Shown: positions 1-35,812 of the stretch, in pieces
Position numbering within the stretch: the first letter of the stretch is position 1
Layout of the letters: the number at the start of each line of letters is the position of its first letter
Assembly (NCBI GenBank): GCA_003233075.1
Contig: QIKQ01000056.1
Coordinates: 1-36,498 of the forward strand
DNA from: Gammaproteobacteria bacterium
GTDB taxonomy: Bacteria; Pseudomonadota; Gammaproteobacteria; SZUA-21
Direction: 5' to 3'
Length of the DNA stretch: 36,498 nt
Made by a program: the position numbers and the translations under genes
Notes under the pieces: generated by a model
What the model was told of the DNA's origin: nothing
Seen by the model: only the letters and a program-made list of their open reading frames with translations
The model's database searches: none

Positions 1-108
1 ATGGGTTTGTCAATGGTGCATGGTATTGTGCACGAGAATAATGGTCATATTCATGTCGAATCTGATCGACAATCTGGTACTATTTTTAAAAGTAACCGGT
101 CAAACTAG
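1..108 (+). pseudogene. C-terminal end of a sensor histidine kinase ATP-binding (HATPase_c) domain, truncated by IS insertion (gene begins upstream of window)
   Basis: Frame 1 reads GLSMVHGIVHENNGHIHVESDRQSGTIFK, the G2-box-to-end segment typical of HATPase_c. After codon AAA (88-90) the frame runs into the IS left end and stops at TAG 106-108. The ATG at 1-3 is an internal Met, not a start. Confidence 0.8.
84..91. repeat. Target-site duplication, left copy (TTTTAAAA)
   Basis: The identical 8-mer TTTTAAAA abuts the outer end of both IS inverted repeats (84-91 and 2472-2479). 8 bp is the TSD length expected for IS66-family elements. Confidence 0.9.
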
Positions 109-112
109 GCCG
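92..112. repeat. IS66 left terminal inverted repeat (IRL)
   Basis: GTAACCGGTCAAACTAGGCCG at 92-112 is the exact reverse complement of 2451-2471. Confidence 0.93.
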
Positions 113-172
113 TCATTTCCATTTTAAGCAATCCGTGTAACTGTTCTTCTCTCACTACAAGAGGAGATTACC

Positions 173-472
173 ATGCAATCCAATTCACTGAATAAACAAG
201 TCAAAGTTCGTCGAACAGAGGCGCAGTGGCAAGACATTATGTTGTCTTACAAAAAGAGTGGCCTGAGCCAGGAAGCCTTTTGTGCTCAACAAGCAATAGC
301 CACCAGTACTTTTCACAAATGGCGTCAACGTTTAGCGGCTGATAAATCACACGATAAAGCAATTTCTGAGTTTATTGAACTGACACCAGCCCAACCCAGC
401 AATTCGGGTGATTGGGATATCGAATTATCCTTGAGTTCGACGATCGTCCTGCGAATAAGGAAAATGAATTGA
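173..472 (+). CDS. tnpA: IS66 accessory protein TnpA (Orf1, HTH)
   Basis: 99-aa ORF, first gene of the IS. The R/W/Q-rich helix-turn-helix-like segment (LSQEAFCAQQAIATSTFHKWRQR) is typical of IS66 Orf1. Its stop overlaps the next start (ATTGA). Confidence 0.88.
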   Translation: MQSNSLNKQVKVRRTEAQWQDIMLSYKKSGLSQEAFCAQQAIATSTFHKWRQRLAADKSHDKAISEFIELTPAQPSNSGDWDIELSLSSTIVLRIRKMN

Positions 473-822
473 TCGCGCTTCGAGGTGATCTGCCGATTTG
501 GTTGTGTACTCAGGCCACCGACATGAGGCGTTCTTTTGATGGTTTGAGCGCACAAGTCAAACAGCTGTTGAATGAGAATCCACAAAGCGGTGCGCTGTTT
601 GTGTTTATTAATCGTCGTCGAACCCAATTGAAATGCTTATACTTTGAATCGGGTGGTTATTGCTTGTGGTCAAAACGCTTGGAACAAGATCAGTATGCGC
701 TGCCTCATCAGGCCAGTGAATTAAAAAAATCAATCCATCAAACCGAGTTAATGAGTTTGATTGAAGGCTTAGACTTGGAGATCAAAAACAAACGCAAACG
801 TTATAAAAAAGCGGTGTTATGA
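469..822 (+). CDS. tnpB: IS66 accessory protein TnpB (Orf2)
   Basis: Contains the IS66 Orf2 hallmark ...PIWLCTQATDMRRSFDGLSAQV.... The ORF track starts at ATG 412 inside tnpA. I prefer the in-frame TTG at 469-471, which overlaps the tnpA TGA and gives the usual MIAL... N-terminus. The start is uncertain. Confidence 0.85.
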   Translation: MIALRGDLPIWLCTQATDMRRSFDGLSAQVKQLLNENPQSGALFVFINRRRTQLKCLYFESGGYCLWSKRLEQDQYALPHQASELKKSIHQTELMSLIEGLDLEIKNKRKRYKKAVL

Positions 823-872
823 GTTGAATTCTGTTAGAATAATCGCGTTATCATTAGAAGGTTTTTATCGTT

Positions 873-2450
873 TTGACGCGCATTGTCACCCCGAAAGATC
901 AATCCACTACACTCTCGGTACACGAAGAGAATGCGGCCTTACGAGAACAGTTAAAAATCCAAACCGAACAAATCAAAGAGTTAAAACAACAACTCGATTG
1001 GTTTAAACGGCAACTGTTTGGAAACAAATCAGAGAAACGTTTAGAGATTGATACGTCACACCAAGCTGATCTATTGGCTGGCTTGGGCGTGGCCCCTCCC
1101 AGCCTTGATGACATTCCAACCGAACAAATAAGCTATGAGCGTCGCAAAAAACAACGCGATGCCAAGACCGTTAACGATACGGGACTGCGTTTCGATGACA
1201 GTGTGCCGATGGAAACGATTGAAGTTCCCAATGTGGAGTTAAACGATCTGTCCGCGGAAGATCTTGAGCAGATTGGTGAAAAAATCACTTACCGTTTAGC
1301 GCAACGCCCAGGCAGTTATGTGATTCTCAAATACGTGCGTCAAGTCGTTAAAGATAAATCCACCCAACTCTTGCACACCCCTGCGATGCCAGCCAATGTA
1401 CTGGAAAAGAGTGTGGCTGATGTGAGCTTTTTAGCGGGCATGTTGGTGGATAAGTTTTTATATCATCTGCCGTTGTATCGGCAACATCAACGCCTAGAAA
1501 ACTCAGGCATTACCTTGAGTCGCAGCACCTTGACGAACTTAAGCGGTCGTGCGATTGACTTATTATTACCGATTGTGGATGCGCAATTAGCGAACGTCTT
1601 GCTGAGTCGGGTTTTGGCGATGGATGAAACACCCATTAAGGCGGGACGTCGAGAAAAAGGCAAGCTGCATCAAGGCTATTTTTGGCCAGTTTACGGTGAG
1701 CAAAACGAAATTGTCTTTACCTATAATGCCAGTCGGAATCATTCTTGTGTGCCTGATATCCTGGGTGATTTTAGCGGCACCTTATTATCGGACGGCTATG
1801 CGGCTTATGAACGTTATGCGCAAAAACGAGAGGATGTGACTCACGCGCAATGTTGGTCGCATGCGCGGCGTTATTTTGAAGCCGCCTTAAAAGCAGAACC
1901 GCAAGCGAGCGAGGAAGCCCTGGCGTTGATCGGGACTCTCTACGTGCATGAAAAGAAAATACAGACGCGCAAGCTTAACAGCACTAAGAAGCTAGCCTAC
2001 CGGACGAAGCACAGTGAAGCGATTGTGAAATCCTTTTGGCATTGGTGTGAGCAACAATGCCATCGATCGGATTTATTACCAAAAGATCCCTTATCTAAAG
2101 CACTCAAATATGTGATGAATCGACGATTAAGTTTACAAGTATTTTTATCCGATCCGGATGTGCCGCTGGATACCAATCATTTAGAACGCGCGCTACGCGC
2201 AATTCCGATGGGAAGGCGCAACTGGCTTTTTTGTTGGACAGAGATTGGTGCCCAGCGGGTAGGCATTATTCAAAGTTTATTAGTAACCTGCAAACTACAG
2301 GGAGTTGATCCTTATACTTATCTGGTTGATGTCTTACAGCGTGTGGCTCAGCACCCCGCGAACCGAGTAATTGAACTCACCCCGAGAGTTTGGAAAAATA
2401 AGTTTGCTGACAATCCACTGCGTAGCGATTTGAAAGTGTTAGGTCAATAG
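873..2450 (+). CDS. tnpC: IS66-family transposase TnpC (DDE)
   Basis: 525 aa with an N-terminal coiled-coil/leucine-zipper-like segment (LREQLKIQTEQIKELKQQLDWFKRQLFG). Central LPLYRQ and DETPI motifs plus a CWSHARRYF segment are typical of IS66 transposases. TTG start. The stop at 2448-2450 abuts IRR. Confidence 0.95.
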   Translation: MTRIVTPKDQSTTLSVHEENAALREQLKIQTEQIKELKQQLDWFKRQLFGNKSEKRLEIDTSHQADLLAGLGVAPPSLDDIPTEQISYERRKKQRDAKTVNDTGLRFDDSVPMETIEVPNVELNDLSAEDLEQIGEKITYRLAQRPGSYVILKYVRQVVKDKSTQLLHTPAMPANVLEKSVADVSFLAGMLVDKFLYHLPLYRQHQRLENSGITLSRSTLTNLSGRAIDLLLPIVDAQLANVLLSRVLAMDETPIKAGRREKGKLHQGYFWPVYGEQNEIVFTYNASRNHSCVPDILGDFSGTLLSDGYAAYERYAQKREDVTHAQCWSHARRYFEAALKAEPQASEEALALIGTLYVHEKKIQTRKLNSTKKLAYRTKHSEAIVKSFWHWCEQQCHRSDLLPKDPLSKALKYVMNRRLSLQVFLSDPDVPLDTNHLERALRAIPMGRRNWLFCWTEIGAQRVGIIQSLLVTCKLQGVDPYTYLVDVLQRVAQHPANRVIELTPRVWKNKFADNPLRSDLKVLGQ

Positions 2451-2471
2451 CGGCCTAGTTTGACCGGTTAC
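2451..2471. repeat. IS66 right terminal inverted repeat (IRR)
   Basis: CGGCCTAGTTTGACCGGTTAC is the exact reverse complement of 92-112. Confidence 0.93.
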
Positions 2472-2479
2472 TTTTAAAA
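2472..2479. repeat. Target-site duplication, right copy (TTTTAAAA)
   Basis: Same 8-mer as 84-91, directly outside IRR. Confidence 0.9.
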
Positions 2480-2580
2480 TTCTTATTCCACCTATTAAAT
2501 TGGCTGAAGATCAGAATGAAAAATCTAACGATAAATTAAAAATAAGTACTTTCTCCGAGCTACGAGCTAGACAATTGTAA
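2472..2580 (+). pseudogene. Displaced 3' tail of the IS-interrupted histidine kinase
   Basis: Joining 91 to 2480 restores ...GGT ACT ATT TTT AAA ATT CTT ATT CCA CCT... = GTIFKILIPP (the GTxFxxxLP ending of HATPase_c). That frame continues to TAA 2578-2580. Confidence 0.8.
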
Positions 2581-2620
2581 CGTATTAGTAGTAGATGACG
2601 AAAAATCACTAGTCCATTTA

Positions 2621-2938
2621 ATGAAGGAATTACTAGAAACAATGGGGTGTAAGGTAAGCACCTATACTAACAGCAAAGAGGCTTGTGAATTTTTCCGGAG
2701 CAATCCAGATAAATTTGATGTTGTTATTACTGATCAAACTATGCCAATGATGACTGGTCTTGAAATGGCAAATATTATGGCTTCGTTGCGTCCAAAAATG
2801 CCAGTTATTCTTTGTTCAGGTTATAGTAATGGTTTAGAAGTTAAGTCAGGCAACAGCGAAAATATTAAAAGGGTTTTAATGAAGCCAATCGATCCAGACG
2901 AATTACGTAAACATATAAATGATTTAATGTTAAATTAG
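2621..2938 (+). CDS. Response-regulator receiver (REC) domain ORF, probably the C-terminal receiver of the disrupted hybrid kinase rather than an independent gene
   Basis: Contains FDVVITDQTMPMMTG (phospho-acceptor Asp region), ILCSGY and LMKP, which are REC signatures. The conserved beta1 segment NVLVVDDE lies upstream of the first ATG (open frame from 2546) with no ATG/GTG/TTG to start it. Confidence 0.7.
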   Translation: MKELLETMGCKVSTYTNSKEACEFFRSNPDKFDVVITDQTMPMMTGLEMANIMASLRPKMPVILCSGYSNGLEVKSGNSENIKRVLMKPIDPDELRKHINDLMLN

Positions 2939-3160
2939 AAATTCGGATCGAATTCTGATACCTTTGATAATCTAGACTAGATTAGCCTATTAAGCGTTGC
3001 TTATATAATTGACCGCAGATATATGATATAGATATACTGATAATGAGGTAATTCACTTGGTTTAATTGCGGTAGTGCTCGGACGTTGTAATCAGTTCTCA
3101 TGTATTACTTATAAGAAGTCACTTATATGCGGATATGAAGTTCCAGGAAAGGAAAAACGT

Positions 3161-3529
3161 ATGATAAAACTATTTAAGCAGTCCAGTTCAGAAAGAAAAA
3201 ACAGGGAGTTTATAAAAAAAAGTGAACAAGCACTTAACGAGAACTATGTTTTGAAAGCAACTTTAATTGATATTGAGCACGATAGTGATGAAGAGTCTAT
3301 ACGTTACGATGCGAGTCTCGTAAAGGTAGGCAAATTTTATAAATTAATGATTACCCAAAAGGACGATTCAGAAACAATTCGTTTTGACCAAAAAGATTTC
3401 GATTCTTGGGATAAAATTGATCATTATTTGCTAGCTGAAACGGGTTTTTTGATTACCGATTTCAAAAGAAAAAAAGTTGAAATAGTTAGCGCTGATAACG
3501 AGTTATTTGACCGAACTGAGTCTGAGTAA
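3161..3529 (+). CDS. Hypothetical protein (122 aa from ATG 3161; ORF track start 3074)
   Basis: Open frame with a purine-rich AGGAAAGGAAAAA just upstream of ATG 3161. I recognise no family. Confidence 0.5.
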   Translation: MIKLFKQSSSERKNREFIKKSEQALNENYVLKATLIDIEHDSDEESIRYDASLVKVGKFYKLMITQKDDSETIRFDQKDFDSWDKIDHYLLAETGFLITDFKRKKVEIVSADNELFDRTESE

Positions 3530-3561
3530 GTGTAAATCAACACGCTAAGAAATAAACTATT

Positions 3562-4125
3562 TTAATTATTTTTTAGTAAAATTTCTTGCGGGGATAAACT
3601 TTTTTTAATATTTTCAGCAATATCAAACATATTATCGAATCCCTTTAATCCTATGAGTTGACTATCTGTTTTAGTAATTATGAGTTCAATGCAAACATTA
3701 TTTTGTGATCTAATTTCCATGCACTTAATCTGATCTTTTTTTATTTCACTAAAACCATCCGGCCAATGATAGGTTAAGCTTTGGTTTTCTAGTACTACCT
3801 TATATTGTTTTACCTGATTTTCTTGCTTTCGATATTTTACTTTTAACCATACGGAGAAACTCGCTAATATTATTATTGGGGCAATCCAATATTGATTTCC
3901 CATAATATAGGATATTAGGAATAGGACTAACAGCGAGAGCACTATAATCATGAGCTTTGATTTGTTTTTGTCTCGCAAGTAATTAGGATCTAGTTGGTAT
4001 TCCATATTGAATTTAGGCCTTACTTCAATTTTTAAATACATTAATTTAGCAAGTAATGAGCATAACATAAGCAGAATTAGATTAGAAGTAGTGAAGACAA
4101 GTAGCCAAGATAAGTAGTCAGGCAC
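3562..4125 (-). CDS. Hypothetical membrane protein (3 predicted TM segments plus a small C-terminal soluble domain)
   Basis: 187 aa with hydrophobic stretches LSWLLVFTTSNLILLMLCSLLAKL, LMIIVLSLLVLFLISYI and WIAPIIILASFSVWL. It starts 38 bp downstream of the cheA stop on the same strand, so it is likely co-transcribed. Confidence 0.6.
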   Translation of the reverse strand: MPDYLSWLLVFTTSNLILLMLCSLLAKLMYLKIEVRPKFNMEYQLDPNYLRDKNKSKLMIIVLSLLVLFLISYIMGNQYWIAPIIILASFSVWLKVKYRKQENQVKQYKVVLENQSLTYHWPDGFSEIKKDQIKCMEIRSQNNVCIELIITKTDSQLIGLKGFDNMFDIAENIKKSLSPQEILLKNN

Positions 4126-4163
4126 ATGGTCATTCTATGTAGAGGTATCCTAAAAGTAAAAAA

Positions 4164-6362
4164 TCATAATGCTCGAAGTAAATTATTTGATTTGTTTTTT
4201 GAATCGTCTTCAGTGAAATCAAGGACTATTTGTTTAAGATTATTAAGGTTAAGAACGTACGCTATTGAGCCTGTATCTAGGACTGTAATACTATCGAATA
4301 AAAGATATTCTAATTCTAAGCTACTGGTGTGGGCTAAGCAAATATCAATCAGATTAATTATTTTATTAACGATAATAGCAAAGTTAATCCCGCCTTTAGA
4401 AATAATAATTATGTACTCTGTTTCTTTGCTTGTTGAGTTTGAAAACTGTGCAGGTGGTAATAAATTGGATAATCGGAGATAAGGATAAATTTCTTTATTA
4501 TGATTTATATAGCCCTGGGCATCAGTTATAGAGTTTTTGTAAGCAGTTCCAGGGAATGAATCCAGAATTGATTCTTGTTGGGTTAACAACAATGATTCAC
4601 CGACATTCACCAGTAAGTAAGGTGCTTCTGGTTTTTCGAGGGGAATACTTATTTGAAAAATCGTACCTCGATTCTCTTCCGAAAAAACCTTAATACTGCC
4701 GTGAAGTTCTCGAATGTTATTACGTACTACGTCTAGACCCACTCCGCGACCTGATAAATTAGTTGCCTCCTGGCAAGTAGTAAAGCCAGGTTCAAATATC
4801 AAGTTGAGTATTTCACTCGATGTTAAATTAACACTTTTATCAATAATTCCTATTTTTATGGCTCTACTCATGATTTCACTTTCACTAATTCCTTTGCCAT
4901 CATCTTGTATTTCGATTTGAATTTCACCTTTAACCCGTCTCGCTTTTAAGATAATGATTGCTTGGCTATTTTTTCCTTTCTTTAATCTTTCTTCACTCGA
5001 TTCTATGCCATGAGCAATTGCATTTCTAATTAGATGCAATAGTGGATCACAAATTTTGTCTAAGATAGACTTACTAATCCTGATTTCTTCGCCCTCAGTT
5101 TTAAGAACTATATTTTTATTATGCTTATGATTGGATTCGTATATAAGCCTTTTAAAGCGGCTAAACACTTCTTTAACATAGGTTGTATTTAACTGCTTCG
5201 CTTGATTTCGTATCTGAATAATTTGTTTAGTCACCGATTCGGAAAAGTTATCAAACTGATCAAGCTCAATTTGACCTGATCTTTGATTAACGGACCAGTA
5301 AACCATAAGCTCTTCAATTTGAAGTACGAGTGAGTCAAGTTTAGCCGGAGCAATGCGTAAACTTACAGAGTCAATTATTTCAATTTCTTTTATTTTGGCT
5401 TGTTTATCGAGTGCAGCTGAAATAATTTCAGGATGTACTAATTTTTGTTCTACCAATAGCTGACCTAGCGGCTGAATATTTGAATTATCAGTAATTGGAG
5501 TGCTTTGCTTTTCTGACTGGAACCTCAGGGTATCTTCCAATTCTTTTCGAGTTAAGGCTCCACTTGAGACTAATAGCTCTCCAATTCGAGTGTCATCTTC
5601 AGGTAGGGATTTTATAATTTGTGAATAATGTGAAATACTTGCACGAGGTGGTAACATGGCAATATATGAAATTTGGTTGATTGCTTCAAATACGTGCTCT
5701 AATTCTTGTCGAGCTAACTTAGTTTCAAAGTCAATCTCAAATCCTAAATAACATTGCAGAGGGTCAAATTGATTAAGATCAGGAAGTAAATCGTATATTG
5801 ATGTTATGTGTACTATAGTTCCGATTGAATTTAAATAATCAAAAAATTCCAATGGGTCTACATTCTGTTTAAATGTGTTAGTTTCAAATCGAATTGAAAA
5901 ATGCCAGTAATGTGAACTTACTGAGCTAGGATGCGCATCGGTTGCAGATTGTTTATCTACTTGTTGAATGTTGCTTGCATCGCATATGAAGTGATCTAAA
6001 GAGTTTTTAAGAAGGGAATTAAGTTGCTTAACATCTTGCTCTAATTCTTCTTCATCTATTGCTCGTTTAACTAGGAGACGGAGATGATCAGTACTGGATA
6101 AAAGTATTGAAACTAGGTTTTCGTCTAGTCGCAATGAATTATTTCGAATACATTCCAATAAGTTCTCTATGTGATTTGCGAAAGAGACTACTTGCTTGTA
6201 AGAAAATAGATTTGATGCACCTTTTAGTGTGTGTACGGCTCGAAATAGATCATTGATTAGTTTTTTCTTGTTTGGTTCCGATTGTACGGTTAACAAAGCA
6301 TCTTCCATGATCAATAGTAAATCATTACATTCTTGTTTATATGTTTCTTTTGGATGATTCAC
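4164..6362 (-). CDS. cheA: Chemotaxis-type histidine kinase CheA (Hpt, linker with MshEN-like motifs, dimerisation, HATPase_c, CheW-like)
   Basis: Hpt motif AVHTLKGAS, N-box HLIRNAIAHGIE, G1 DDGKGI, G2 GRGVGLDVV and a C-terminal CheW-like region. GTG start at 6360-6362. Confidence 0.9.
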   Translation of the reverse strand: MNHPKETYKQECNDLLLIMEDALLTVQSEPNKKKLINDLFRAVHTLKGASNLFSYKQVVSFANHIENLLECIRNNSLRLDENLVSILLSSTDHLRLLVKRAIDEEELEQDVKQLNSLLKNSLDHFICDASNIQQVDKQSATDAHPSSVSSHYWHFSIRFETNTFKQNVDPLEFFDYLNSIGTIVHITSIYDLLPDLNQFDPLQCYLGFEIDFETKLARQELEHVFEAINQISYIAMLPPRASISHYSQIIKSLPEDDTRIGELLVSSGALTRKELEDTLRFQSEKQSTPITDNSNIQPLGQLLVEQKLVHPEIISAALDKQAKIKEIEIIDSVSLRIAPAKLDSLVLQIEELMVYWSVNQRSGQIELDQFDNFSESVTKQIIQIRNQAKQLNTTYVKEVFSRFKRLIYESNHKHNKNIVLKTEGEEIRISKSILDKICDPLLHLIRNAIAHGIESSEERLKKGKNSQAIIILKARRVKGEIQIEIQDDGKGISESEIMSRAIKIGIIDKSVNLTSSEILNLIFEPGFTTCQEATNLSGRGVGLDVVRNNIRELHGSIKVFSEENRGTIFQISIPLEKPEAPYLLVNVGESLLLTQQESILDSFPGTAYKNSITDAQGYINHNKEIYPYLRLSNLLPPAQFSNSTSKETEYIIIISKGGINFAIIVNKIINLIDICLAHTSSLELEYLLFDSITVLDTGSIAYVLNLNNLKQIVLDFTEDDSKNKSNNLLRAL

Positions 6363-6720
6363 TACTATTGCCGTAAATAGCCGTCTGATAATATGTATGT
6401 CGTTTGTAAATATTTATATTCTATTGGAGTAATTTTTTCATTCATATTTGTAAGCTTATTCGTTTGCCAAAAGGCAGATCTGCTGTATAAAGTGATCTTT
6501 CCTAGTATGTATTTGCGGCTATACCCAAGAGATTCTTTAGAAAATAGAGTATTTTTGCGACTTATATTGGAGTAAGTATAGTCGTGAAGAATATTCTGCA
6601 TAATTGTCAGGTTATTGACCTAAGCTGTTTGCTTGGATTAAGTTATTGCGACTAAGCTAGCAATGGTCATTATTCTATATTATTATTACTTTGAATGTGG
6701 ACTTTTACATTTTCAGTAAG

Positions 6721-7347
6721 ATGATTGATGAGAAATTAAATATCGAAAATTTAACTCAAAAGTTAGCTTATTATTCAAAACAATATCTTGGCTCTGGGGA
6801 AGCGCCGAAAAATAATGCAGTTTTATGGCTAACGGGTTTATCTGGGTCGGGTAAAACGACAACAGCACTAAAATTACAAGAAGCAATTAGAAAATTGTCC
6901 TATAAAGTTTGTGTGCTCGACGGCGATGAAGTCAGAAAAAACTATACATCAGATCTTAGTTTCACAGATGAGGACAGAATTGAAAATATCAGGCGAGTTG
7001 CGCAGTTGAGCAATGCAATCGCGAGTCAAAATGCGATCGTTATAGTTGCCTTAATCAGTCCGTTTAAAGAAAATAGACTACTGGCTAGAGAAACAAATCA
7101 GGATAATGTATTTCTGGAAGTATATTGTAAGGCTCAATTAGAGCAGTGCGAGAAACGTGACCCGAAAGGCCTTTACAAAAAGGCGCGCTTAGGTGAAATT
7201 GCGTATTTTACTGGAATAGATTCTCGTTATGATGTTCCGCAAAACCCCAGTATTTCGCTTGATACGGTTAGAAGCAGCCCAAGTATAAATGCAGCTCGAT
7301 TAATAAACTTAATGGTCGAATGCAATATTATTAAAGCATTTAGTTAA
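6721..7347 (+). CDS. cysC: Adenylylsulfate (APS) kinase
   Basis: P-loop LTGLSGSGKTT, then LDGDEVRKN, DLSFTDEDRIENIRRVAQ and RDPKGLYKKARLGEIAYFTGIDSRYDVP, the canonical CysC pattern. The ORF track begins at TTG 6691. ATG 6721 gives a more typical length. Confidence 0.88.
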   Translation: MIDEKLNIENLTQKLAYYSKQYLGSGEAPKNNAVLWLTGLSGSGKTTTALKLQEAIRKLSYKVCVLDGDEVRKNYTSDLSFTDEDRIENIRRVAQLSNAIASQNAIVIVALISPFKENRLLARETNQDNVFLEVYCKAQLEQCEKRDPKGLYKKARLGEIAYFTGIDSRYDVPQNPSISLDTVRSSPSINAARLINLMVECNIIKAFS

Positions 7348-7696
7348 TTATTTTTGGAATTCTTTTTCTTTTTAAAATAGCAATCAGATATTTATTATTT
7401 TGATAAACTGTAATAACCTCCCAACCATTTTTTCCATGCCTGTTTAATTTTCTAATAAATTTTTTATTAAAACCACGCTTTATTTTTTGTGAGACCCATT
7501 TGTATTTCCATTTTGGCCTAACATATTTCGTTTTTTTGCTTGTTACAGCTTCTTGATGTTTATTTTCAGAATGTTTTTCTTCAGATTTTATATTTTCAGA
7601 TTGTTGATTTTCTGACTTTGGTTTTGACCAAACATGTGACGAGGCAAGTATTGCAACTATTGCTAGATTTATAAGTAGTGTTTTAGTAGAGGTCAT
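7340..7696 (-). CDS. Hypothetical secreted Lys-rich protein with a DUF4177-like C-terminus
   Basis: Has a signal-peptide-like N-terminus (LLINLAIVAILASSHVWS). The C-terminal GKNGWEVITVYQNNKYLIAILKRK resembles DUF4177 (assignment from memory). Its 3' end overlaps the cysC 3' end by 8 bp (convergent). Confidence 0.55.
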   Translation of the reverse strand: MTSTKTLLINLAIVAILASSHVWSKPKSENQQSENIKSEEKHSENKHQEAVTSKKTKYVRPKWKYKWVSQKIKRGFNKKFIRKLNRHGKNGWEVITVYQNNKYLIAILKRKRIPKIIN

Positions 7697-7882
7697 TGTT
7701 GCTCCCGGTTTGTCTAGCAGTAAAATATCAATGGTGATAAGCTTTAGGTGCTTCTAACTAATTAGATGTCATAGTCATTTAGCTAAAAAATAGTCGTAGA
7801 TTTGACTCTTGTCAATATGGCGGGGCTTAATATAATTAAAGAGAATAATTGCTATACGCTATTTTGTACTATTTTAATCTGT

Positions 7883-8524
7883 TTAATCTCGGTTTAATGT
7901 AATGCAGTGCGATTTTAAGTCTTCATAGGCGTTAGATAGCTGATTGATTAGCTCATCTGCAGTTGTAGACTTAGGCAGTGCATCGCCTACAACCACGTCA
8001 CAATTGAAAGGAACAAAAAGCGCTTCCCCTCTGGGTAGTGATCTTCCTAAGCCGTGAATCATGACCGGTGTTATTTTTGTGTCATTACGGTCCTTTATTA
8101 AATGATAGATGCCTTTTTTTAATTCGCTTGTTTTTTCAGGTTCGCCACGCGTACCCTCGGGAAACAAGATTAATATATCCCCTTGATCAAGTGCATCATG
8201 GCAAGCATTAAGCATCTCGTCGCGATTATTTGAATTCTTTCGGTCTATCGGAATTATGCCAATAATATTAAGAGAAAACCAAGCTAGAAAGTTTTTAGAT
8301 AGAAAATAGTCCGCAGCGGCAACCGGACGCAGTCGGTGAATTTTTGCCAGTGGGTAGAGGCTAATTAGTACCAAGGTGTCCAAATGACTATTATGATTAG
8401 CAGCTATAACCGCTGGTCCAGAGGTAGGTAGTTTGTGACGAAAACGACTGTTTAATCCAATGATAACTAAGACTAGCGGCTTGACTAGTAACGCAAAAAA
8501 TAATATTTTGAGGACTCGACTCAT
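7883..8524 (-). CDS. Lysophospholipid (1-acyl-sn-glycerol-3-phosphate) acyltransferase, PlsC family
   Basis: Has the HX4D motif (NHNSHLDT) and FPEGTRG motif. 213 aa with an N-terminal TM segment. Confidence 0.88.
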   Translation of the reverse strand: MSRVLKILFFALLVKPLVLVIIGLNSRFRHKLPTSGPAVIAANHNSHLDTLVLISLYPLAKIHRLRPVAAADYFLSKNFLAWFSLNIIGIIPIDRKNSNNRDEMLNACHDALDQGDILILFPEGTRGEPEKTSELKKGIYHLIKDRNDTKITPVMIHGLGRSLPRGEALFVPFNCDVVVGDALPKSTTADELINQLSNAYEDLKSHCITLNRD

Positions 8525-8528
8525 GTAT

Positions 8529-9476
8529 TTAGTAGTGTAAATAGTAGAGATAATGAAAAAACAAGGGTGCGGTATAAAGTAAGCTATCCATCCTGTCCAG
8601 TATGCCTCCGTGGCCTGGAATTAAACTGCCACTGTCTTTTATGCTCAGGTCTCGCTTAACAGAGGATATGACCACATCGCCTATAAATCCGGCGAGTGAG
8701 ATGATCATGCCAGCGCCAAAACTTTCTAATGTATTGAGTGGCGTAAGAGTAGGGCCTATAAAGCCTGAGAGTAAGGTAATGCTTGCGACGCCTCCAAAAA
8801 AACCAGCCCAGGTTTTATTAGGACTTACTTTAGGAATAATTTTATCCTTACCGAGTAATTTACCCCAAAGGTATTGGCACACATCATTAAACTCAGTCAT
8901 TAGAATCAAAAATAAAACTAAACCCATGGGTCCAGCATTTAAGTTTTTTTCTGGAAGTACAATTAAATAAGCAATATGACTGATCGAAAATACGGTAAGC
9001 ATAGCGACCCAGTGCAATACACCGGCTGCTTTTATAAATCCATCTGTAGCACCATTGATTACCATCCGCATGGGCATGAACAAAAATAGATAGACTGGAA
9101 TAAATATTATGAACATACCATACCAGCTGTCGGCAACCCAATAATATTGAAAGGGAATAGAAATATATACCCAAAATAATACATTTCTATCGATATGCCG
9201 AGTGGGTATTATAGAAATAAATTCTTTTAGGGCGAGAAAGCTTAGAAAGCCGAAGAAGATAATCGCGGTGTTTTTACTTATGGATAGGAACACAAATAAT
9301 AAACCGATAATCCACCACCATGAAATGATACGCTGTTTTAATTCGGTATGATTTTTTTCCGGATTTTTGTATTTAAAAATAATCGTTACAATAGTCGCGA
9401 TTGACAACAGGCCAATAACAATTATCATGGCATAGAGTGAATGGGAAGGAATTTTAGCTAGAAATTGCATATTCAA
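8529..9476 (-). CDS. cdsA: Phosphatidate cytidylyltransferase (CDP-diacylglycerol synthase), CdsA family
   Basis: Carries the CdsA signature SSVKRDLSIKDSGSLIPGHGGILDRMDS and is a polytopic membrane protein. It lies 4 bp from the downstream plsC-type gene. Confidence 0.9.
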   Translation of the reverse strand: MNMQFLAKIPSHSLYAMIIVIGLLSIATIVTIIFKYKNPEKNHTELKQRIISWWWIIGLLFVFLSISKNTAIIFFGFLSFLALKEFISIIPTRHIDRNVLFWVYISIPFQYYWVADSWYGMFIIFIPVYLFLFMPMRMVINGATDGFIKAAGVLHWVAMLTVFSISHIAYLIVLPEKNLNAGPMGLVLFLILMTEFNDVCQYLWGKLLGKDKIIPKVSPNKTWAGFFGGVASITLLSGFIGPTLTPLNTLESFGAGMIISLAGFIGDVVISSVKRDLSIKDSGSLIPGHGGILDRMDSLLYTAPLFFHYLYYLHY

Positions 9477-9519
9477 AAAGTGAGCTCAAAGCTAAAAAAA
9501 AAATAGTGATGCGAATTAT

Positions 9520-9984
9520 TTAGACTAGACTCGCTGTTATTAATATCGCAAGCTGTATTACTAAGCTTAAGGCCTGTTTTTTGAATAATTTCATGCATGC
9601 TTGTAAACGTGTTTTTATATCTCGAGTATTTTGTTTGCCATCAACTCGCTCTGGGATTAACTCCCGGATTAAATTAAGATCAACAAGTGTTTTATCCAGT
9701 GAGATTAATTCTTCATCGCTTACATGTTCCTGGCAAGCAAGATGATTAATAATCGCGGCATCGAAGCCTACTCGAATTGCTAATATTGTCTCATAGATCC
9801 CCAGTAAAATCACAATTATAAGTGTCACTAGAAGTGTAGTGGAAAGCTTGTTTATTGTAGTAAAATAAATTAATAAAAATATTGCGATAAGTGTCAAAAA
9901 TAATGAGAAATTATTAACTTTAGTGTGTTGCTCTAAAAAACTAGCGAAAATTTTAAGCTGTATTTTTTCTTGGCTATTACTCAT
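9520..9984 (-). CDS. Hypothetical small membrane protein within the lipid operon
   Basis: 154 aa with 3 hydrophobic segments. It overlaps the upstream gene by 8 bp (9977-9984), suggesting translational coupling. Confidence 0.6.
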   Translation of the reverse strand: MSNSQEKIQLKIFASFLEQHTKVNNFSLFLTLIAIFLLIYFTTINKLSTTLLVTLIIVILLGIYETILAIRVGFDAAIINHLACQEHVSDEELISLDKTLVDLNLIRELIPERVDGKQNTRDIKTRLQACMKLFKKQALSLVIQLAILITASLV

Positions 9985-11320
9985 TGCTTTCTATACTAGT
10001 AAAATTTACGACTTTTTCTAAGACCATGTGATCAGATTCCTTTATTAAGATCCCTGGTCGTGCCTTTTTTACAATATTTATTGCTCTATTAATACTTTCA
10101 GCTCGCTTGCTGATTAATAACCAGGCTATTAACGCTAAAGTGCTACGTGAATAACCCAATGCACAGCATACTAGTAGGGGATGGCTGCGGTCTGATTGCT
10201 CAATTAATCCTGCTGCGGAAATTAGGGTCTGAACATTTGGAGTGATTAAATCAAGTGTTGGAATGGCATGCCAAATAGCGTTTGTTTTTGGTGCGCTAAA
10301 TTCGGCAGTCATATCAATTACAGTCGAATAATTAGCTAGGTTTATTTCGCGTATTGTTGGAAAACGACCTAAAAAAACATTATCAATAATATGATTGGCT
10401 GGTTTAATTTTTAGTGCCCATAAGCGAGAATTAATCCTTGCAGCGATTAAGTAAGGGTATAGCAACCATTGAGCGGCCAAGCTAATTAGACCAGACCTAT
10501 TTTTTTGGAATCCGGAGGCACCGATAAACAAATAGAAAAAACTTAACAATAGTAACGAGCTAGCGGGCCAGAACAGCCAAAGAGCAGTACCGCCAAGCAG
10601 TGTTGCAATTAAAGCAAATAAACTAGCAGCAATCGCATAAAATAAGAAAAAGCGTTTTCGGCGGCTCTCCTTAGTTATATGAATGTGCCGAATAGGCACT
10701 TCGCCAATATTCGGCCAAAGCCAGATACAAAGAAAACCAAGTAACATGCCGGTTGGTATATCAATAAAATGATGCTGATAAGTTGTCAGTACCGATATGC
10801 CGATTAAAATGGCGAGTGCATGACATGGCCAAAGTAAATATTTAGGCAAATGCCGCACATACAAAACCCAAAGTAGTATGAGTAAGGCGATGTGTAACGA
10901 AGGTGCTTGATTAAATGGTTTATCAAAGCTGTTTAGTGTCGCAAACATAAATCCAGTTGTGCCAGTTGACTCAGGACGATCAAAACTGAATGCGAGAGGG
11001 AATAAAATAAAGCAAATCACCGCGATTATTTGTGTGCAAAGCAAGCGTTTCGCATGGCGATCGAGTTCTAACTTAGATTTGCAGATAAAGACTGATATGA
11101 CATAGAAAAGATCGATTAACCAATAGGGGATAATGGTCCAGGCAATAAAGGGTATTTGCTTTTCCCAAGCAAAAACCATTGTTGGCACATCGTTTTGCTG
11201 AGCTGCAAGCCAGTTCGCAAAACCATAACTAAGGAAAAAAAAAGGTCCTAAAAATAATAGCCACAGACTTGCTCGACGCCAGAGACGTAAATTTTCTTGC
11301 TCGGATGATTCAACACTCAT
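9977..11320 (-). CDS. Fusion protein: N-terminal PAP2-like (sphingomyelin/IPC-synthase-like) membrane domain plus C-terminal dual-specificity (CX5R) phosphatase domain
   Basis: PAP2-superfamily motifs APSLH and YQHHFIDIPTG lie in a multi-TM N-terminal half. The C-terminal PTP loop is LLVCCALGYSRST (C-x5-R-S/T). Confidence 0.82.
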   Translation of the reverse strand: MSVESSEQENLRLWRRASLWLLFLGPFFFLSYGFANWLAAQQNDVPTMVFAWEKQIPFIAWTIIPYWLIDLFYVISVFICKSKLELDRHAKRLLCTQIIAVICFILFPLAFSFDRPESTGTTGFMFATLNSFDKPFNQAPSLHIALLILLWVLYVRHLPKYLLWPCHALAILIGISVLTTYQHHFIDIPTGMLLGFLCIWLWPNIGEVPIRHIHITKESRRKRFFLFYAIAASLFALIATLLGGTALWLFWPASSLLLLSFFYLFIGASGFQKNRSGLISLAAQWLLYPYLIAARINSRLWALKIKPANHIIDNVFLGRFPTIREINLANYSTVIDMTAEFSAPKTNAIWHAIPTLDLITPNVQTLISAAGLIEQSDRSHPLLVCCALGYSRSTLALIAWLLISKRAESINRAINIVKKARPGILIKESDHMVLEKVVNFTSIESNE

Positions 11321-11329
11321 AGTCAGGTG

Positions 11330-13135
11330 TTAGTTTTTTCTAGCAAGGCACACAGTGAATATGCCAAATTCGTCGATTCGTTGCTCGATTTTGCTAAAAC
11401 CTTTACTTTCTACCAGCTGATCCATTTCCTGCTGAGTGCGTCTACGCATAACCCAAGCCTGCGCTTGACGATGGCTGGTAAGTGCACGGGCGATCATTTC
11501 AAGTTGAGGATGCCATGGCTGGCCAGTATAAATAAGATAAGAACCAGACTCTAGTGTTTGAGAAAAGCCCTCTAAAGATTGTAAAATCAAATCATTTTCT
11601 GGGAACAATTCGAATAATCCGGAGACAATTCCCAGTGTTGGCGTCGTCTCCAAATTGTCAAAGCTAGAAACATCAAATGCATCGGCTTTTACAAATTTTG
11701 CAGTGGAGCTTAAGCTTTTTTCGACTATGAGTTCACTACCCTGAGTTATATTCAAATTACTGTAATCACGCAATAATATTGAATCTGCTTTTATCTCACT
11801 GTGTTGAATTGCCTCAAGTATGTAGCGTCCATGACCGGCAGCGATGTCCATAATATGAATTGGTTTATTTTCATTTTTAAGCAGTTTCATCGAATGTCGG
11901 ATTAATTCTTCCAAATTAATTTTTCGTTGTCGTATACCGCGCCAACCTATTGAGTTGAGATAGTTATTGTCGATAAATCGTCCGATAGGACCTAAGCCGG
12001 AGGCATTATTTTTATAAACATAATCGAGAGCACTGCCTGAATCGAAGCCAGTTTTTTGGCCGAGTTTAATGCCATCAGATAACAAGGCGCTGAATTTTAA
12101 GCTCATTCGTACGCTTGCCCAGGCAAAACCACGCAGCGAAAAAGAGGAAAGTGGTGTCGCTAAGGTGTCAGACTCGTATCGCGTAAAGCCTGATTTATCC
12201 GCTTCCATGAGTGAGGTTCTATTGAAGGGCTCAGCAAAACGTTGCTGAATAAAATCCCGCATTTTATCGATTACGATAACGCGATCTTTTTCGCCTAAGG
12301 TGTCGTGGTAAAAACCTTTGAGGACATGTCTTTCTTTAATACTTGATCCAAGATTTTCGTAAAATACATGTTGTGGTTTATGATGTACCACCCAATCCGA
12401 ACCTGAAATTAATAACTGTGTTGGCACCGTAATGGCAGCTGCATCACAAACAATTCTATCGGCTGTTTTGTATAACTCGAGTAGAATGTTATTCGAAATT
12501 GCTCGAGTTATCAGTGGGTCGGCTTCAAAGGATTTAATTCGTTCTGGGTCGTGACTTAAAAATTTTGCTTTAACATAGCTGTTAACAAAAAAATTACCTT
12601 TAAACTTTTGTTTAATTGCCAAGGCAGTACGTGCAAAGGGCACGTATAGTTTTACTTTAAAAGCAGGCGATGCTAGCACCATGCAACGTATTTTTGGTGC
12701 ATAGTCATGCACCCAGGTTGAGATTAAGACTGCACCGACGCTTTGTGCGATTATCGCCATATCTTCGACTGAAAAATCATAGCTTACTGAAATATGATCG
12801 ATCAATGTTTGAACATCTCGAACTGAACAGCTGAAGCTTGGACTGTAACCACGATCTCCTGGGGATTTGCCGTGGCCTCGAGCATCCCAGGCAAAAAATT
12901 CGTAGTCTGGAAGCTTTAGTTCATCGACGACATGAGCCATGCGGCCTGAATGCTCATGGCCGCGATGGAAAAGGATAATTGCGCCTTTCGCTACTCCTGA
13001 CTCCGTGGGCCAGTAACGATAAAATAAATCGACGTCATCGTGAGTCCTAAAACTCTTCTCTTCAACCTTTCTTAGTGGTGGACTGACTTTATCTGTCATA
13101 TTTCCCATATTAATTCCTTGTGTTATCGAAAGCAT
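11330..13135 (-). CDS. Bifunctional alpha/beta hydrolase (lysophospholipase/monoglyceride-lipase-like) / class I SAM-dependent methyltransferase
   Basis: The N-terminal half has ILFHRGHEHSGR (HG..EH..R box) and nucleophile elbow IAQSVGA. The C-terminal half has methyltransferase motif I, IMDIAAGHGRY. The start may be one of several Met codons near 13105-13135. Confidence 0.82.
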   Translation of the reverse strand: MLSITQGINMGNMTDKVSPPLRKVEEKSFRTHDDVDLFYRYWPTESGVAKGAIILFHRGHEHSGRMAHVVDELKLPDYEFFAWDARGHGKSPGDRGYSPSFSCSVRDVQTLIDHISVSYDFSVEDMAIIAQSVGAVLISTWVHDYAPKIRCMVLASPAFKVKLYVPFARTALAIKQKFKGNFFVNSYVKAKFLSHDPERIKSFEADPLITRAISNNILLELYKTADRIVCDAAAITVPTQLLISGSDWVVHHKPQHVFYENLGSSIKERHVLKGFYHDTLGEKDRVIVIDKMRDFIQQRFAEPFNRTSLMEADKSGFTRYESDTLATPLSSFSLRGFAWASVRMSLKFSALLSDGIKLGQKTGFDSGSALDYVYKNNASGLGPIGRFIDNNYLNSIGWRGIRQRKINLEELIRHSMKLLKNENKPIHIMDIAAGHGRYILEAIQHSEIKADSILLRDYSNLNITQGSELIVEKSLSSTAKFVKADAFDVSSFDNLETTPTLGIVSGLFELFPENDLILQSLEGFSQTLESGSYLIYTGQPWHPQLEMIARALTSHRQAQAWVMRRRTQQEMDQLVESKGFSKIEQRIDEFGIFTVCLARKN

Positions 13136-13165
13136 TTCGAAGATTGGGTTATCCTCTGTGTTAGC

Positions 13166-13783
13166 CTAATTAGACTCTAATTCTTTTAGTGCATTTCTTA
13201 TTCGATTAACTATAGTTAATCCTATTAAAAGTGCTGTTAGCGGCATGAGCCAATATAACCAGTTTGGTAAATTGGTTGAAAAAGCGAGCCATATCGCAAG
13301 CACGGAAAACAGTAACGCTCGGTCGCTTTTGCCCATGGGTCCATCGTATCGCCTAGTTGCACCAATACTTGTACCAATGACACCTGCAAATTCACTTAGT
13401 ATTGCTAGAAAAATTACTAATAATACAGGAATCAAAGTGAATGGAGCTATTGCGACAAATGGAAAATAAAGCGCTGCATCTGAAACAGCGTCGCATAATT
13501 CATTTAGATACTCGCCCAGTTTACTTTGTTGATTAAACTCTCTAGCGAGCATACCGTCTATCGCATTTAGCGCCATGCGAATCAACATCCATATGGGAAA
13601 CAAGATAAACAAGAAATGATAATTTGAAAAAGCATAAAGCAGACTGCCCAGTAAGATCGATCCTATAGCAGCAGCGAGGGTGACTTGATTAGCGCTAATG
13701 CCTCTCTCTGCTAGTTTTTTGACTGTAGGTCGTAGTAAGGCTTGAAATTTTGGCTTAATGTCGTATAGAGTCATTTTGTCCAC
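13166..13783 (-). CDS. CDP-alcohol phosphatidyltransferase family protein (variant motif)
   Basis: 205-aa multi-TM protein with NAIDGMLAREFNQQSKLGEYLNELCDAVSD, matching D-x2-DG-x2-AR-x8-G-x3-D-x3-D except that the first and third Asp are Asn. Confidence 0.85.
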   Translation of the reverse strand: MDKMTLYDIKPKFQALLRPTVKKLAERGISANQVTLAAAIGSILLGSLLYAFSNYHFLFILFPIWMLIRMALNAIDGMLAREFNQQSKLGEYLNELCDAVSDAALYFPFVAIAPFTLIPVLLVIFLAILSEFAGVIGTSIGATRRYDGPMGKSDRALLFSVLAIWLAFSTNLPNWLYWLMPLTALLIGLTIVNRIRNALKELESN

Positions 13784-13912
13784 TTAAGATGTATTTGAAT
13801 AAACATCAACTAACAGACTGTTAACTCTAATCAAGTCTAGTTAATTAGTTAAATTATTTGATGTCGTTATATTACCCTAAATTTCACCGAAATACAGTTT
13901 ACTATGCGGCTT

Positions 13913-29439: not shown

Positions 29440-29457
29440 TAATAACTAAAGTCGCTA

Positions 29458-30300: not shown

Positions 30301-30309
30301 CAGGAAAGG

Positions 30310-30903
30310 ATGACAATGGAAATAAGAGAACTCACAATTTATAACTCCAGTACGAAAGCATTAATTGATCCGAATCGATCAGGTGATAGTTTTGAGTTTT
30401 GTTGTTATATATTAAACCAAATGAACTTGAATTTAAATGATAAATCACGATTTGAGTGGACATTGAAAGTTAACAGTTTGCTTGATTTTATTGAATTGCA
30501 GACTCCCTTAGAGATTCGCCGCCTTGCGCACAAATACATAGAAGCCCCAGATCCTTGGTTACTCTCACTGACAATGGAAAAAACAAATTCAGTGGGGCAT
30601 AAAATGATTAATTTGATCGAGGCAATTGATGGCTTGTGTAATATTATCAATCGCCCATCGTCTGAAAAAATCGTTTTTGAAAAACGTGAGATGATACGAA
30701 GATATGTGTTTAAAAATATATCTAGTATTTTGCGTATGCCAAAAGAGGGCGTTGATTCTAGCATACTGTTTCGTCAAGTAGCCATTTTTAGTGGATCGGC
30801 TTATTTATTTGAGTTGCCTTCTTTGGAAAAAAAAATACATGCTCGTTTACTATCATCACGTTATAAACAAACATCTGCGAGTAGGCATGATCATGCGTCC
30901 TAA
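30310..30903 (+). CDS. Hypothetical ICE-module protein
   Basis: 197-aa ORF in the syntenic slot between the PFL_4693-like and PFL_4695-like genes. I recognise no motif. Confidence 0.55.
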   Translation: MTMEIRELTIYNSSTKALIDPNRSGDSFEFCCYILNQMNLNLNDKSRFEWTLKVNSLLDFIELQTPLEIRRLAHKYIEAPDPWLLSLTMEKTNSVGHKMINLIEAIDGLCNIINRPSSEKIVFEKREMIRRYVFKNISSILRMPKEGVDSSILFRQVAIFSGSAYLFELPSLEKKIHARLLSSRYKQTSASRHDHAS

Positions 30904-34256: not shown

Positions 34257-34287
34257 CTGAATTACTAATTATTAAGGAAACACTAAC

Positions 34288-34976: not shown

Positions 34977-34999
34977 ATTTAGCACTAAGGAGTAAGAAA

Positions 35000-35416: not shown

Positions 35417-35428
35417 TGGAATGAAACA

Positions 35429-35806: not shown

Positions 35807-35812
35807 AAGACC

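Follow-up and report, generated by a model that had tools for sequence, protein, structure and literature searches.

An MshEN_N-type four-helix module, probably a c-di-GMP receptor, between the P2-like and P3 domains of a divergent orphan CheA

The DNA analysed here (the window, that is, the whole stretch of 36.5 kb) belongs to a contig from a hydrothermal-vent metagenome. The locus under study contains a gene for a CheA-type histidine kinase, the domains encoded by it, and one further open reading frame (ORF) downstream, with the following features:

4164..6362, minus strand: intact ORF for a CheA-type histidine kinase of 732 aa, beginning with GTG and free of frameshifts
6078..6347, minus strand: P1 (Hpt) domain, residues 6–95, Pfam PF01627 with E 3.1e-12
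5628..5912, minus strand: P2-like domain, residues ~151–245, of the order beta-alpha-beta-beta-alpha-beta, with WHxSxRF and CYLGFEI signatures
5517..5588, minus strand: MshEN_N motif 1, residues 259–282, RIGELLVSSGALTRKELEDTLRFQ, helices alpha1–alpha2
5472..5516, minus strand: spacer of 15 residues, 283–297, SEKQSTPITDNSNIQ, not conserved, pLDDT about 58
5400..5471, minus strand: MshEN_N motif 2, residues 298–321, PLGQLLVEQKLVHPEIISAALDKQ, helices alpha3–alpha4
5358..5399, minus strand: helix of fixed length joining motif 2 with P3, residues 322–335
5163..5357, minus strand: P3 dimerisation region, residues ~336–400, aligned with the family P3 and the E. coli P3
4635..5045, minus strand: P4 ATP-binding kinase domain, residues 440–576, Pfam HATPase_c with E 4.7e-18
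4236..4619, minus strand: P5 CheW-like domain, residues 582–709, Pfam CheW with 23.4 bits against a cutoff of 23.5
3562..4125, minus strand: ORF of 187 aa for a predicted membrane protein, 38 nt past the CheA stop

First of all, the product is a CheA: the NCBIfam CheA models match it, Pfam finds the Hpt, HATPase_c and CheW domains, and the family profile aligns with E. coli CheA over 627 columns (hhalign, E 1e-104). The P1-P3-P4-P5 order expected of CheA is present, with invariant catalytic residues and strong divergence of P3 and P5; Pfam H-kinase_dim was not detected in the protein. The phospho-accepting residue of P1 is His44, located in FRAVHTLKGAS, and no variation occurs at H44, T45, K47 and G48 among 52 sequences. 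In P4, the N, G1, F and G2 boxes are all present, with N447, D487, G489, G491, G538, R539, G540 and G542 invariant. The database entry is a protein of 714 aa that starts at Met19 of the 732-aa ORF; the longer GTG start is supported, because the homologs share a conserved N-terminus to which residues 6–18 align. In the numbering of the 732-aa ORF, which is used throughout, the positions given for the two motifs in the preliminary description (residues 259–282 and 298–321) are correct; that description named no strand, and translation of the minus strand yields its two motif sequences exactly.

In the genomic neighbourhood, a Pfam scan of the 30 ORFs of the 36.5-kb window found no MCP, CheW, CheR, CheB or STAS gene, and the CheA is an orphan in the sense that no MCP, CheW, CheY or adaptation gene lies within these 36.5 kb. 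A receiver is encoded close to the gene, at 2564–2938. The operons of the relatives have the order MCP-CheY-STAS-CheA-MCP-CheW-CheR-(CheD)-CheB, with a STAS (CheS-like) gene directly upstream of CheA in the canonical operons, and in Nitrotoga arctica the operon adjoins flagellar genes. An IS66 transposase is situated 1.7 kb from CheA, and only IS66 and TraD fragments were matched when the flanks were compared with plasmids by BLAST. For a lipid gene close by, relatives of 80% identity occur in vent metagenomes, none of them with this CheA alongside, and a scan of genome contigs returned only unrelated kinases with 28–54% identity over short stretches. The run's contigs over positions 1–9000 are short, with a depth of about 5x, and contain nothing that casts doubt on the assembly; one weak 'joint' among them has 21 letters on its shorter side. 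As for the 187-aa ORF, it has no Pfam match and only a weak NCBIfam match to 'AFWIR motif membrane protein' (E 1.8e-4, below the cutoff), and it may be co-transcribed with CheA.

The region 5400–5588 is full of stop codons on the plus strand; the minus strand is coding and translates to motif 1, spacer and motif 2 in direct succession (residues 259–321). Against the published motif, RLGxxhhxxGhhxxxxLxxxLxxQ, motif 1 matches 9 of 11 positions, the two deviations being conservative (I for L, A for a hydrophobic residue), and motif 2 agrees at 8 of 11 and departs at three, Pro replacing the Arg, Lys the central Gly and Ile a Leu; these counts and the 15-residue spacer are as the preliminary description had reported them. 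With the relaxed motif from Wang et al. ([RKPN]hGxxhhxx[GAS]hhxxxxhxxxhxx[Q...]), motif 1 fits everywhere and motif 2 fits except at position 10, where K307 stands in place of G, A or S; this deviation is common to most family members, in which the position varies among Q, K and G. The relaxed motif is expected 0.0004 times per shuffled CheA (0.0033 times without position 10), and a six-frame scan of the window (72,992 codons) gave two matches only, namely motifs 1 and 2. A chance or low-complexity origin of the motifs was considered and is excluded by the shuffled-CheA expectation.

Moreover, the profile searches place the segment among MshE-related domains. The NCBIfam model NF053729.1 ('c-di-GMP_motif, MshE-related') matches the 91-aa segment with 42.4 bits (cutoff 38, E 4.5e-11) and the full-length CheA with 31.8 bits, which is below the same cutoff; it matches 48/48 family members, with motif 1 aligning to profile positions 1–27, and the NCBIfam NfrB models match the CheA segment in 45–46 of the 48. 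Up to E 10, Pfam PF05157 matched neither the CheA nor the segment. HMM support, the lack of which the preliminary description had named as a refutation, comes from NF053729 and not from PF05157. The miss by the latter was not taken to refute the reading: judging by the Pfam05157 row of Wang's alignment, which starts within motif 2, its model covers mostly MshEN_C, and this would account for the miss. A weak DUF4388 match (E 0.002) was also recorded. In the PDB, the single sequence retrieves PilF (E 1.4e-6), and the family profile retrieves MshEN-type domains only: PilF (3.8e-15), Geobacter PilB (2e-7), MshE (1e-4) and PilF GSPII-B (4.5e-4).

The AlphaFold model of the module has four helices (pLDDT 78), and the predicted four-helix bundle is superposable on solved MshEN_N. 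The top Foldseek match is PilF GSPII-B with c-di-GMP (8pdk; rmsd 1.4 Å over 64 columns, prob 1.00), followed by MshE with c-di-GMP (5htl), the X. citri PilB N-terminus (7lkm) and PilF GSPII-A (9g1w); the E-values of these four are weak (0.3–1.8) because the query is short. Judged from these comparisons of sequence, the module, two helix-turn-helix repeats with 24 residues in each, is homologous to MshEN_N, the c-di-GMP-binding N-terminal subdomain (53 residues) of MshE, PilB and PilF, ATPases of pili and secretion, and a tandem MshEN-type motif in CheA, as originally noticed, is supported by NF053729, the profile matches, the fold and the conservation described below. However, a full MshEN/T2SSE_N domain in the sense of PF05157 is not contained in this CheA. 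Since motif 2 runs via a 14-residue helix into P3, there is no room for MshEN_C, and the protein belongs to the MshEN_N-only subclass instead of carrying a full MshEN domain. The distance Q321–R336 is 14 residues in 104/120 sequences, and residues 311–334 form a single continuous helix in the predicted model.

The window CheA belongs to a widespread proteobacterial CheA family of the same architecture, which is known from Wang et al. (2016); in their work, residues 261–390 of Aeromonas veronii CheA bound c-di-GMP with a KD of 2.6 µM (PMC5013675, Suppl. Table 6). At 50% identity the family falls into dozens of clusters, spread over Gamma- and Betaproteobacteria, and the closest homolog of the window CheA is only 37% identical. 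Conservation was counted in 120 sequences, that is, the window CheA and 119 homologous CheAs. G261, Q282, G300 and Q321 are present in 120/120, G268 in 118/120 and R259 in 88/120, and the free variation of motif residues that the preliminary description had set against its own reading is not observed. L264, E274 and A317 are also invariant, K320 of motif 2 occurs in 116/120 and P298 in 85/120, and each member of the hydrophobic cluster L264, L275, L279, L303, V304 and L318 is kept in at least 87% (104/120 or more). In motif 2, P at position 1 and a non-Gly residue at position 10 are the family norm. The connector from the P2-like domain to the module is 19 residues in 118/120 sequences; the spacer between the motifs is variable, ranging from 5 to 23 residues with a median of 12.

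For the columns that are at least 90% conserved in the family, the window CheA retains 18/18 in the module, 10/28 in P3 and 11/49 in P5, and no other member of the family comes close to it in the divergence of P3 and P5. That the module is the best-preserved part of a divergent orphan CheA speaks for selection on the module itself. It could be supposed instead that the gene is what is left of a chemotaxis operon and is itself decaying, stranded by rearrangement near an IS66 element and keeping the motif through recent ancestry instead of present function, as the lack of MCP, CheW, CheR, CheB and STAS genes among the window's ORFs, the eroded P3 and P5 and the failure of Pfam on P3 would suggest. 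However, the 2.2-kb ORF is intact in a region of 34% GC, where stops arise easily, the catalytic boxes of P1 and P4 are all kept, ancestry is not recent given the 37% identity of the closest homolog, and the divergence is highly uneven, whereas neutral decay would strike the MshEN_N module as well; a remnant is thus quite improbable.

The position of the module relative to P2 has to be revised. The preliminary description had put it where P2 normally sits, whereas a P2-like domain at ~151–245 precedes it, so that the module lies between that domain and P3. The P2-like domain is confidently folded (AlphaFold pLDDT about 80–95), and Pfam P2 (PF07194) matches it in 16/28 relatives with a best E of 6e-5, the window protein itself having no match. 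No significant match to E. coli P2 was obtained (hhalign probability 1.3%), a profile search of the PDB found nothing, and Foldseek returned no CheA P2 structures, only generic ferredoxin-like folds (HPPK, PII, S6). The same region is labelled 'CheY-binding' by Wang et al. (PMC5013675). Replacement of P2 by the module was accordingly rejected on the strength of the conserved, confidently folded domain and of the PF07194 matches in the relatives.

In our opinion, residues ~259–321 are probably an MshEN_N-type four-helix module, inserted between the P2-like domain and P3, that binds one c-di-GMP. The guanines would lie between the position-1 residues (R259 and P298) and the Leu/Ile/Val cluster; the backbone at G261 and G300 would read their Hoogsteen edges, and Q282 and Q321 would recognise the phosphates and riboses. 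In published work, phosphate and ribose are contacted by the terminal Gln (PMC12207366), and the Arg of position 1 is dispensable, K or L giving higher affinity (PMC11731258). The module is joined to the P2-like domain and P3 by connectors of fixed length, with alpha4 running towards P3; the ligand would therefore alter the presentation of P1-P2 to the P3-P4 core and in this way tune autophosphorylation or phosphotransfer. A search of the literature outside subscription journals found no paper on an effect of c-di-GMP on CheA kinase activity. As a caveat, motif 2 has Pro298 in place of the Arg and Lys307 in place of the turn Gly, and the predicted structure of the 15-residue spacer is of low confidence; according to Wang et al., the Gly at position 10 of motif 2 is needed for the alpha3–alpha4 turn (PMC5013675).

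These deviations, with a spacer three times the canonical length, could also mean that the module is a degenerate MshEN_N which has lost c-di-GMP binding in the orphan and now works as a rigid spacer or as a surface on which another protein docks, as in Xanthomonas PilB-PilZ. The third-best structural match, the X. citri PilB N-terminus, is in fact a complex with PilZ; MshEN-like domains that do not bind c-di-GMP exist in XpsE and PilF GSPII-A (PMC11731258; PMC5013675); and in canonical operons the CheS-like gene lies directly before CheA, CheS of S. meliloti being reported to bind CheA there (PMC12654446). However, all 18 family-fixed, ligand-contacting positions are kept, the Pro and the non-Gly of motif 2 follow the family norm and are not local decay, the Arg is dispensable in PilF GSPII-B, and the A. 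veronii ortholog still binds with a spacer of 9 residues; spacer length therefore seems not to be essential, and loss of binding is considered unlikely. That another cyclic dinucleotide such as 3′3′-cGAMP, and not c-di-GMP, is bound could be argued from the departure of motif 2 from the consensus and from the weak binding of cGAMP by V. cholerae MshEN_N (KD 330 µM, PMC5013675); but the Gly and Gln by which a guanine and its phosphate are read are retained in each half-site, and with the micromolar c-di-GMP affinity of the ortholog this is highly improbable.

With c-di-GMP as the probable ligand of the module, it may be speculated, though we think it rather doubtful, that the orphan CheA is no longer an array kinase but a soluble one, which takes c-di-GMP as its main or only input and signals to a non-chemotaxis receiver. 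This reading of array independence is drawn because P5 and P3, its array-coupling parts, are eroded while MshEN_N, P1 and the catalytic core are kept. If it were true, the CheA scaffold would have been repurposed as a second-messenger-gated two-component kinase. The protein could also be a minimal system for c-di-GMP control of CheA without receptor arrays.

Other c-di-GMP inputs to chemotaxis and kinases include MapZ-CheR1, YcgR, PilZ-bearing chemoreceptors and CckA. They reach the same physiological end, the modulation of chemosensory or kinase output by c-di-GMP, through PilZ adaptors or, for CckA, through the catalytic domain; to our knowledge, none of them uses an MshEN_N inside CheA. With a c-di-GMP receptor in CheA, the sessile/motile messenger would act on the kinase itself, in contrast to PilZ adaptors acting at the motor or the methyltransferase. 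The preliminary description implied that such a coupling was novel; however, the architecture and the c-di-GMP binding of a relative were already published, both the idea and the binding measurement dating from 2016 (PMC5013675). What is new here is a divergent orphan CheA in which the module is the best-preserved part.

Compared with the known systems, V. cholerae MshEN (5HTL) likewise consists of two 24-residue RLGxxhhxxGhhxxxxLxxxLxxQ motifs that form a four-helix bundle around one c-di-GMP, but it has Arg in both motifs and a spacer of 5 residues instead of 15, and it continues into MshEN_C, which is an alpha/beta subdomain, and then into a secretion ATPase, whereas CheA has the MshEN_N part only. 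PilF gives the best matches in both sequence and structure, and its GSPII-C carries PLGEILVE...ALQKQ, like motif 2 of CheA. GSPII-B binds c-di-GMP without any Arg (KD 6 nM), and GSPII-C binds it with a KD of about 460 nM (PMC11731258). The best-aligning PilF stretch, 301–360, corresponds to motifs I and II of GSPII-C, which may not be the pair that makes up the ligand site there; the PilF domains also differ in being N-terminal in a pilus ATPase and in having MshEN_C subdomains. NfrB, a c-di-GMP-activated glycosyltransferase with a C-terminal MshEN_N, is similar in carrying the module on a non-ATPase enzyme and different in the partner enzyme and in the position of the module in the protein. 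In A. veronii CheA, the segment is 34% identical to that of the window CheA (E 5e-14). The domain order is the same (module at 260–342 against 253–336), and both proteins have an LPED lead-in, two motifs and a KQ...R[VI] exit into P3. Position 1 of the A. veronii motifs is M and K, position 10 of its motif 2 is still Gly, and its spacer counts 9 residues, whereas the window CheA has R and P at position 1, Lys307 and a 15-residue spacer, and is an orphan with diverged P3 and P5.

The stretch 5400–5588 lies within a 732-codon minus-strand ORF of the ORF list (4164..6362, GTG start), and its minus-strand translation is RIGELLVSSGALTRKELEDTLRFQ followed by a 15-residue spacer and PLGQLLVEQKLVHPEIISAALDKQ, identical to both motif sequences of the preliminary description; the plus strand here is non-coding. 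From the domains listed below, and from a family profile whose alignment to E. coli CheA spans 627 columns (E 1e-104), the product is a CheA, which retains the phospho-His and the N, G1, F and G2 boxes.

Residues 6–95: Hpt domain (Pfam)
Residues 440–576: HATPase_c domain (Pfam)
Residues 582–709: CheW-like domain (Pfam, 23.4 bits; cutoff 23.5)

The database gene call begins at Met19 and gives 714 aa, but the alignment of residues 6–18 with the conserved N-terminus of the homologs justifies the 732-aa numbering.

The motif was scanned in its relaxed 24-residue form, the database-search version of Wang et al. The two adjacent CheA motifs (residues 259–282 and 298–321) are the only matches in a six-frame scan of the 36.5-kb window, and the count expected per shuffled CheA is 0.0004, or 0.0033 with position 10 freed, so that the tandem motifs exceed chance. 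A search of 5.8 billion proteins yielded 1336 relatives, the best 119 of which are CheAs of 716–776 aa with 32–38% identity over ~97% of the length, from Methylomonas, Thiobacillus, Nitrotoga, Azoarcus/Aromatoleum, Uliginosibacterium, Sideroxydans, Gallionellaceae and many metagenomes. In the alignment of all 120 sequences, the residues by which the preliminary description proposed to judge conservation do not vary freely: G261 and Q282 are invariant, together with L264, E274, G300, A317 and Q321; G268 (118/120), L279 (119/120) and K320 (116/120) are nearly so; and R259 is kept in 88, being replaced by F, A, K, Y or M in the others. It has been reported that the backbone of Gly3 and the following residue reads the guanine Hoogsteen edge (PMC5013675), that the terminal Gln contacts phosphate and ribose (PMC12207366), and that changing the position-1 Arg to Lys or Leu raises affinity (PMC11731258). 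As for the second motif, Pro stands first in 85/120 sequences and position 10 is occupied by Q, K or G; since these deviations recur across the family, they are family traits rather than local decay.

The HMM search proposed in the preliminary description supports the module through NCBIfam NF053729.1 and gives no match for Pfam PF05157, even at E up to 10. The former, a dedicated 53-position model ("cyclic di-GMP-binding domain, MshE-related", cutoff 38), scores 42.4 bits (E 4.5e-11) on the isolated 91-residue segment and 31.8 bits, below the cutoff, on the whole protein, and it matches 48/48 family members tested. The Pfam05157 row in the alignment of Wang et al. starts within the second motif and continues into a C-terminal alpha/beta subdomain (PMC5013675); this subdomain is absent from CheA, which would explain the PF05157 miss. 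Against all PDB sequences, the single CheA segment finds residues 300–360 of T. thermophilus PilF (E 1.4e-6), and a profile built from 48 such segments matches MshEN-type domains only: PilF (E 3.8e-15), Geobacter PilB (E 2e-7 and 9e-7), V. cholerae MshE (E 1e-4) and the PilF GSPII-B c-di-GMP-binding domain (E 4.5e-4). The AlphaFold model of residues 246–336 (pLDDT 78) has helices at 260–267, 272–286, 299–305 and 311–334; its best Foldseek match in the PDB is c-di-GMP-bound PilF GSPII-B (rmsd 1.4 Å, 64 columns), and the next three are c-di-GMP-bound MshE, the N-terminus of X. citri PilB and PilF GSPII-A, with weak E-values owing to the short query.

When 1.84 billion cluster representatives were searched with a profile of the CheA segment, 6314 proteins matched at E up to 1e-3, and 790 matched at E up to 1e-10. 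Of the 150 best matches, about 44 have the CheA pattern, that is, a single full-length match near residues 250–350 in proteins of 700–750 aa or their fragments, and the remainder are multi-repeat MshEN_N proteins; the window CheA is its own cluster representative at 50% identity. The strongest matches (P0241–P0262) are ~400–1250 aa long with 5–16 tandem MshEN_N-like stretches, and they look like poly-MshEN_N proteins.

The module had been placed where P2 normally sits, but a separate conserved P2-like domain (residues ~151–245) precedes it, and the module is located between this domain and P3. The P2-like domain carries the signatures WHxSxRF and CYLGFEI, is predicted as beta-alpha-beta-beta-alpha-beta (pLDDT 80–95), and is labelled "CheY-binding" by Wang et al. 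(PMC5013675). Pfam P2 (PF07194) matches this stretch in 16/28 relatives (best E 6e-5) and does not match the window CheA itself; Foldseek returns generic ferredoxin-like folds only, and hhalign against E. coli P2 is not significant. The distance from P2 to motif 1 is 19 residues in 118/120 sequences and that from motif 2 to P3 is 14 residues in 104/120, in contrast to the spacer between the motifs, which ranges from 5 to 23 residues; the final module helix is predicted in the AlphaFold model to run nearly to the P3 start. E. coli CheA has merely a short unaligned linker at this site.

The relatives' CheA genes stand in a conserved operon (MCP - CheY - STAS - CheA - MCP - CheW - CheR - (CheD) - CheB), in which the small STAS gene is always directly upstream of the MshEN_N-bearing CheA (loci L001, L003 and L014), with CheY and a short soluble MCP ahead of it; the Nitrotoga arctica operon comes immediately after flgH-flgL. 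A small STAS protein of S. meliloti, CheS, has been reported to bind CheA (PMC12654446). The window CheA, whose contig derives from a hydrothermal vent metagenome, has in contrast none of these MCP, CheY, STAS, CheW, CheR, CheD or CheB partner genes within 36.5 kb. An APS kinase gene in divergent orientation lies upstream of it, and a 187-aa membrane ORF, an opposite-strand receiver-domain ORF and an IS66 transposase lie downstream. Other features of the window are:

873–2450, plus strand: IS66-family transposase (Pfam E 1.9e-84)
2564–2938, plus strand: stand-alone receiver (REC) domain ORF, just downstream of the transposase
7883–15529, minus strand: phospholipid-related gene cluster
21540–23489, plus strand: subtilase with fervidolysin-like prodomain
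23826–26987, minus strand: 1053-aa protein with HYDIN/ASH-type Ig-like domains and a VWA domain
30791–36481, plus strand: integrative-conjugative-element or T4SS-type genes

The IS66 stretch has a GC content of 0.45 against about 0.34, and reads of the source run cover it several-fold more deeply than its neighbours, which fits a multi-copy element. In the REC ORF, the conserved N-terminus with its acidic pair (NVLVVDDE) immediately follows a stop codon and lies in frame before the first ATG, GTG or TTG (2621), so either its start codon is unusual or the gene is truncated. The phospholipid-related cluster encodes an acyltransferase, a CDP-diglyceride synthase, an unknown ORF, a PAP2 + dual-specificity phosphatase fusion, an alpha/beta-hydrolase + Methyltransf_20 fusion, a CDP-alcohol phosphatidyltransferase and a PLD-like protein. 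The gene order of its core (7883–13783, acyltransferase to CDP-alcohol phosphatidyltransferase) is kept in two vent-metagenome relatives with differing flanks, and their hydrolase-methyltransferase fusions share about 80% identity with that of the window. Relatives with this 80%-identical cluster carry other genes at the CheA flank; in one of them (L010, 15060–17234) this is a GAF-PAS-GGDEF-EAL protein, and therefore the lineage has c-di-GMP turnover enzymes. The subtilase and the HYDIN/ASH-VWA protein are probably surface or secreted proteins. The genes at 30791–36481 encode DUF2859, a TraD/TrwB-like coupling protein (701 aa), DUF4400, a RAQPRD-family protein, DUF3487 and DUF2895, and the four ORFs ahead of them (27292–30903) have no Pfam match.

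The window CheA was also compared domain by domain with its 119 homologs.

Divergence of the window CheA by domain (kept columns among those ≥90% conserved; identity of window to family; identity within family)
MshEN_N: 18/18; 0.47; 0.49
P1: 22/28; 0.35; 0.49
P2-like: 22/31; 0.39; 0.60
P4: 61/87; 0.44; 0.72
P3: 10/28; 0.23; 0.67
P5: 11/49; 0.19; 0.62

By these alignment figures, drift is greatest in the receptor-array-coupling parts and smallest in the c-di-GMP module, which speaks for selection on the module in this protein. The pattern would also fit an orphan that acts as a receptor-independent, c-di-GMP-controlled kinase, a reading that stays a minority hypothesis because the genome is seen through the 36.5-kb window alone.

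The c-di-GMP interpretation of the motifs in the preliminary description is well founded, given the dedicated HMM, the PDB profile matches, the conservation and the binding constant of a relative. The architecture itself is not new: MshEN fused to "chemotaxis protein kinase CheA" was stated by Wang et al. (2016, Nat Commun 7:12481; PMC5013675). A literature search, with most subscription journals outside its coverage, found no study of a c-di-GMP effect on CheA activity; the finding is of modest value, chiefly for a possible regulatory effect of c-di-GMP on CheA and for the lopsided conservation of the orphan. In the published work, residues 260–342 of A. veronii CheA are aligned in Supplementary Fig. 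3c, and EKB11881(261-390) of this protein binds c-di-GMP with a KD of 2.6 µM (Supplementary Table 6; PMC5013675). The A. veronii segment and that of the window share 34% identity (E 5e-14), and since both proteins have an LPED lead-in and a KQ...RV exit, they belong to the same family, the window CheA being a divergent new member of the published CheA-MshEN architecture.
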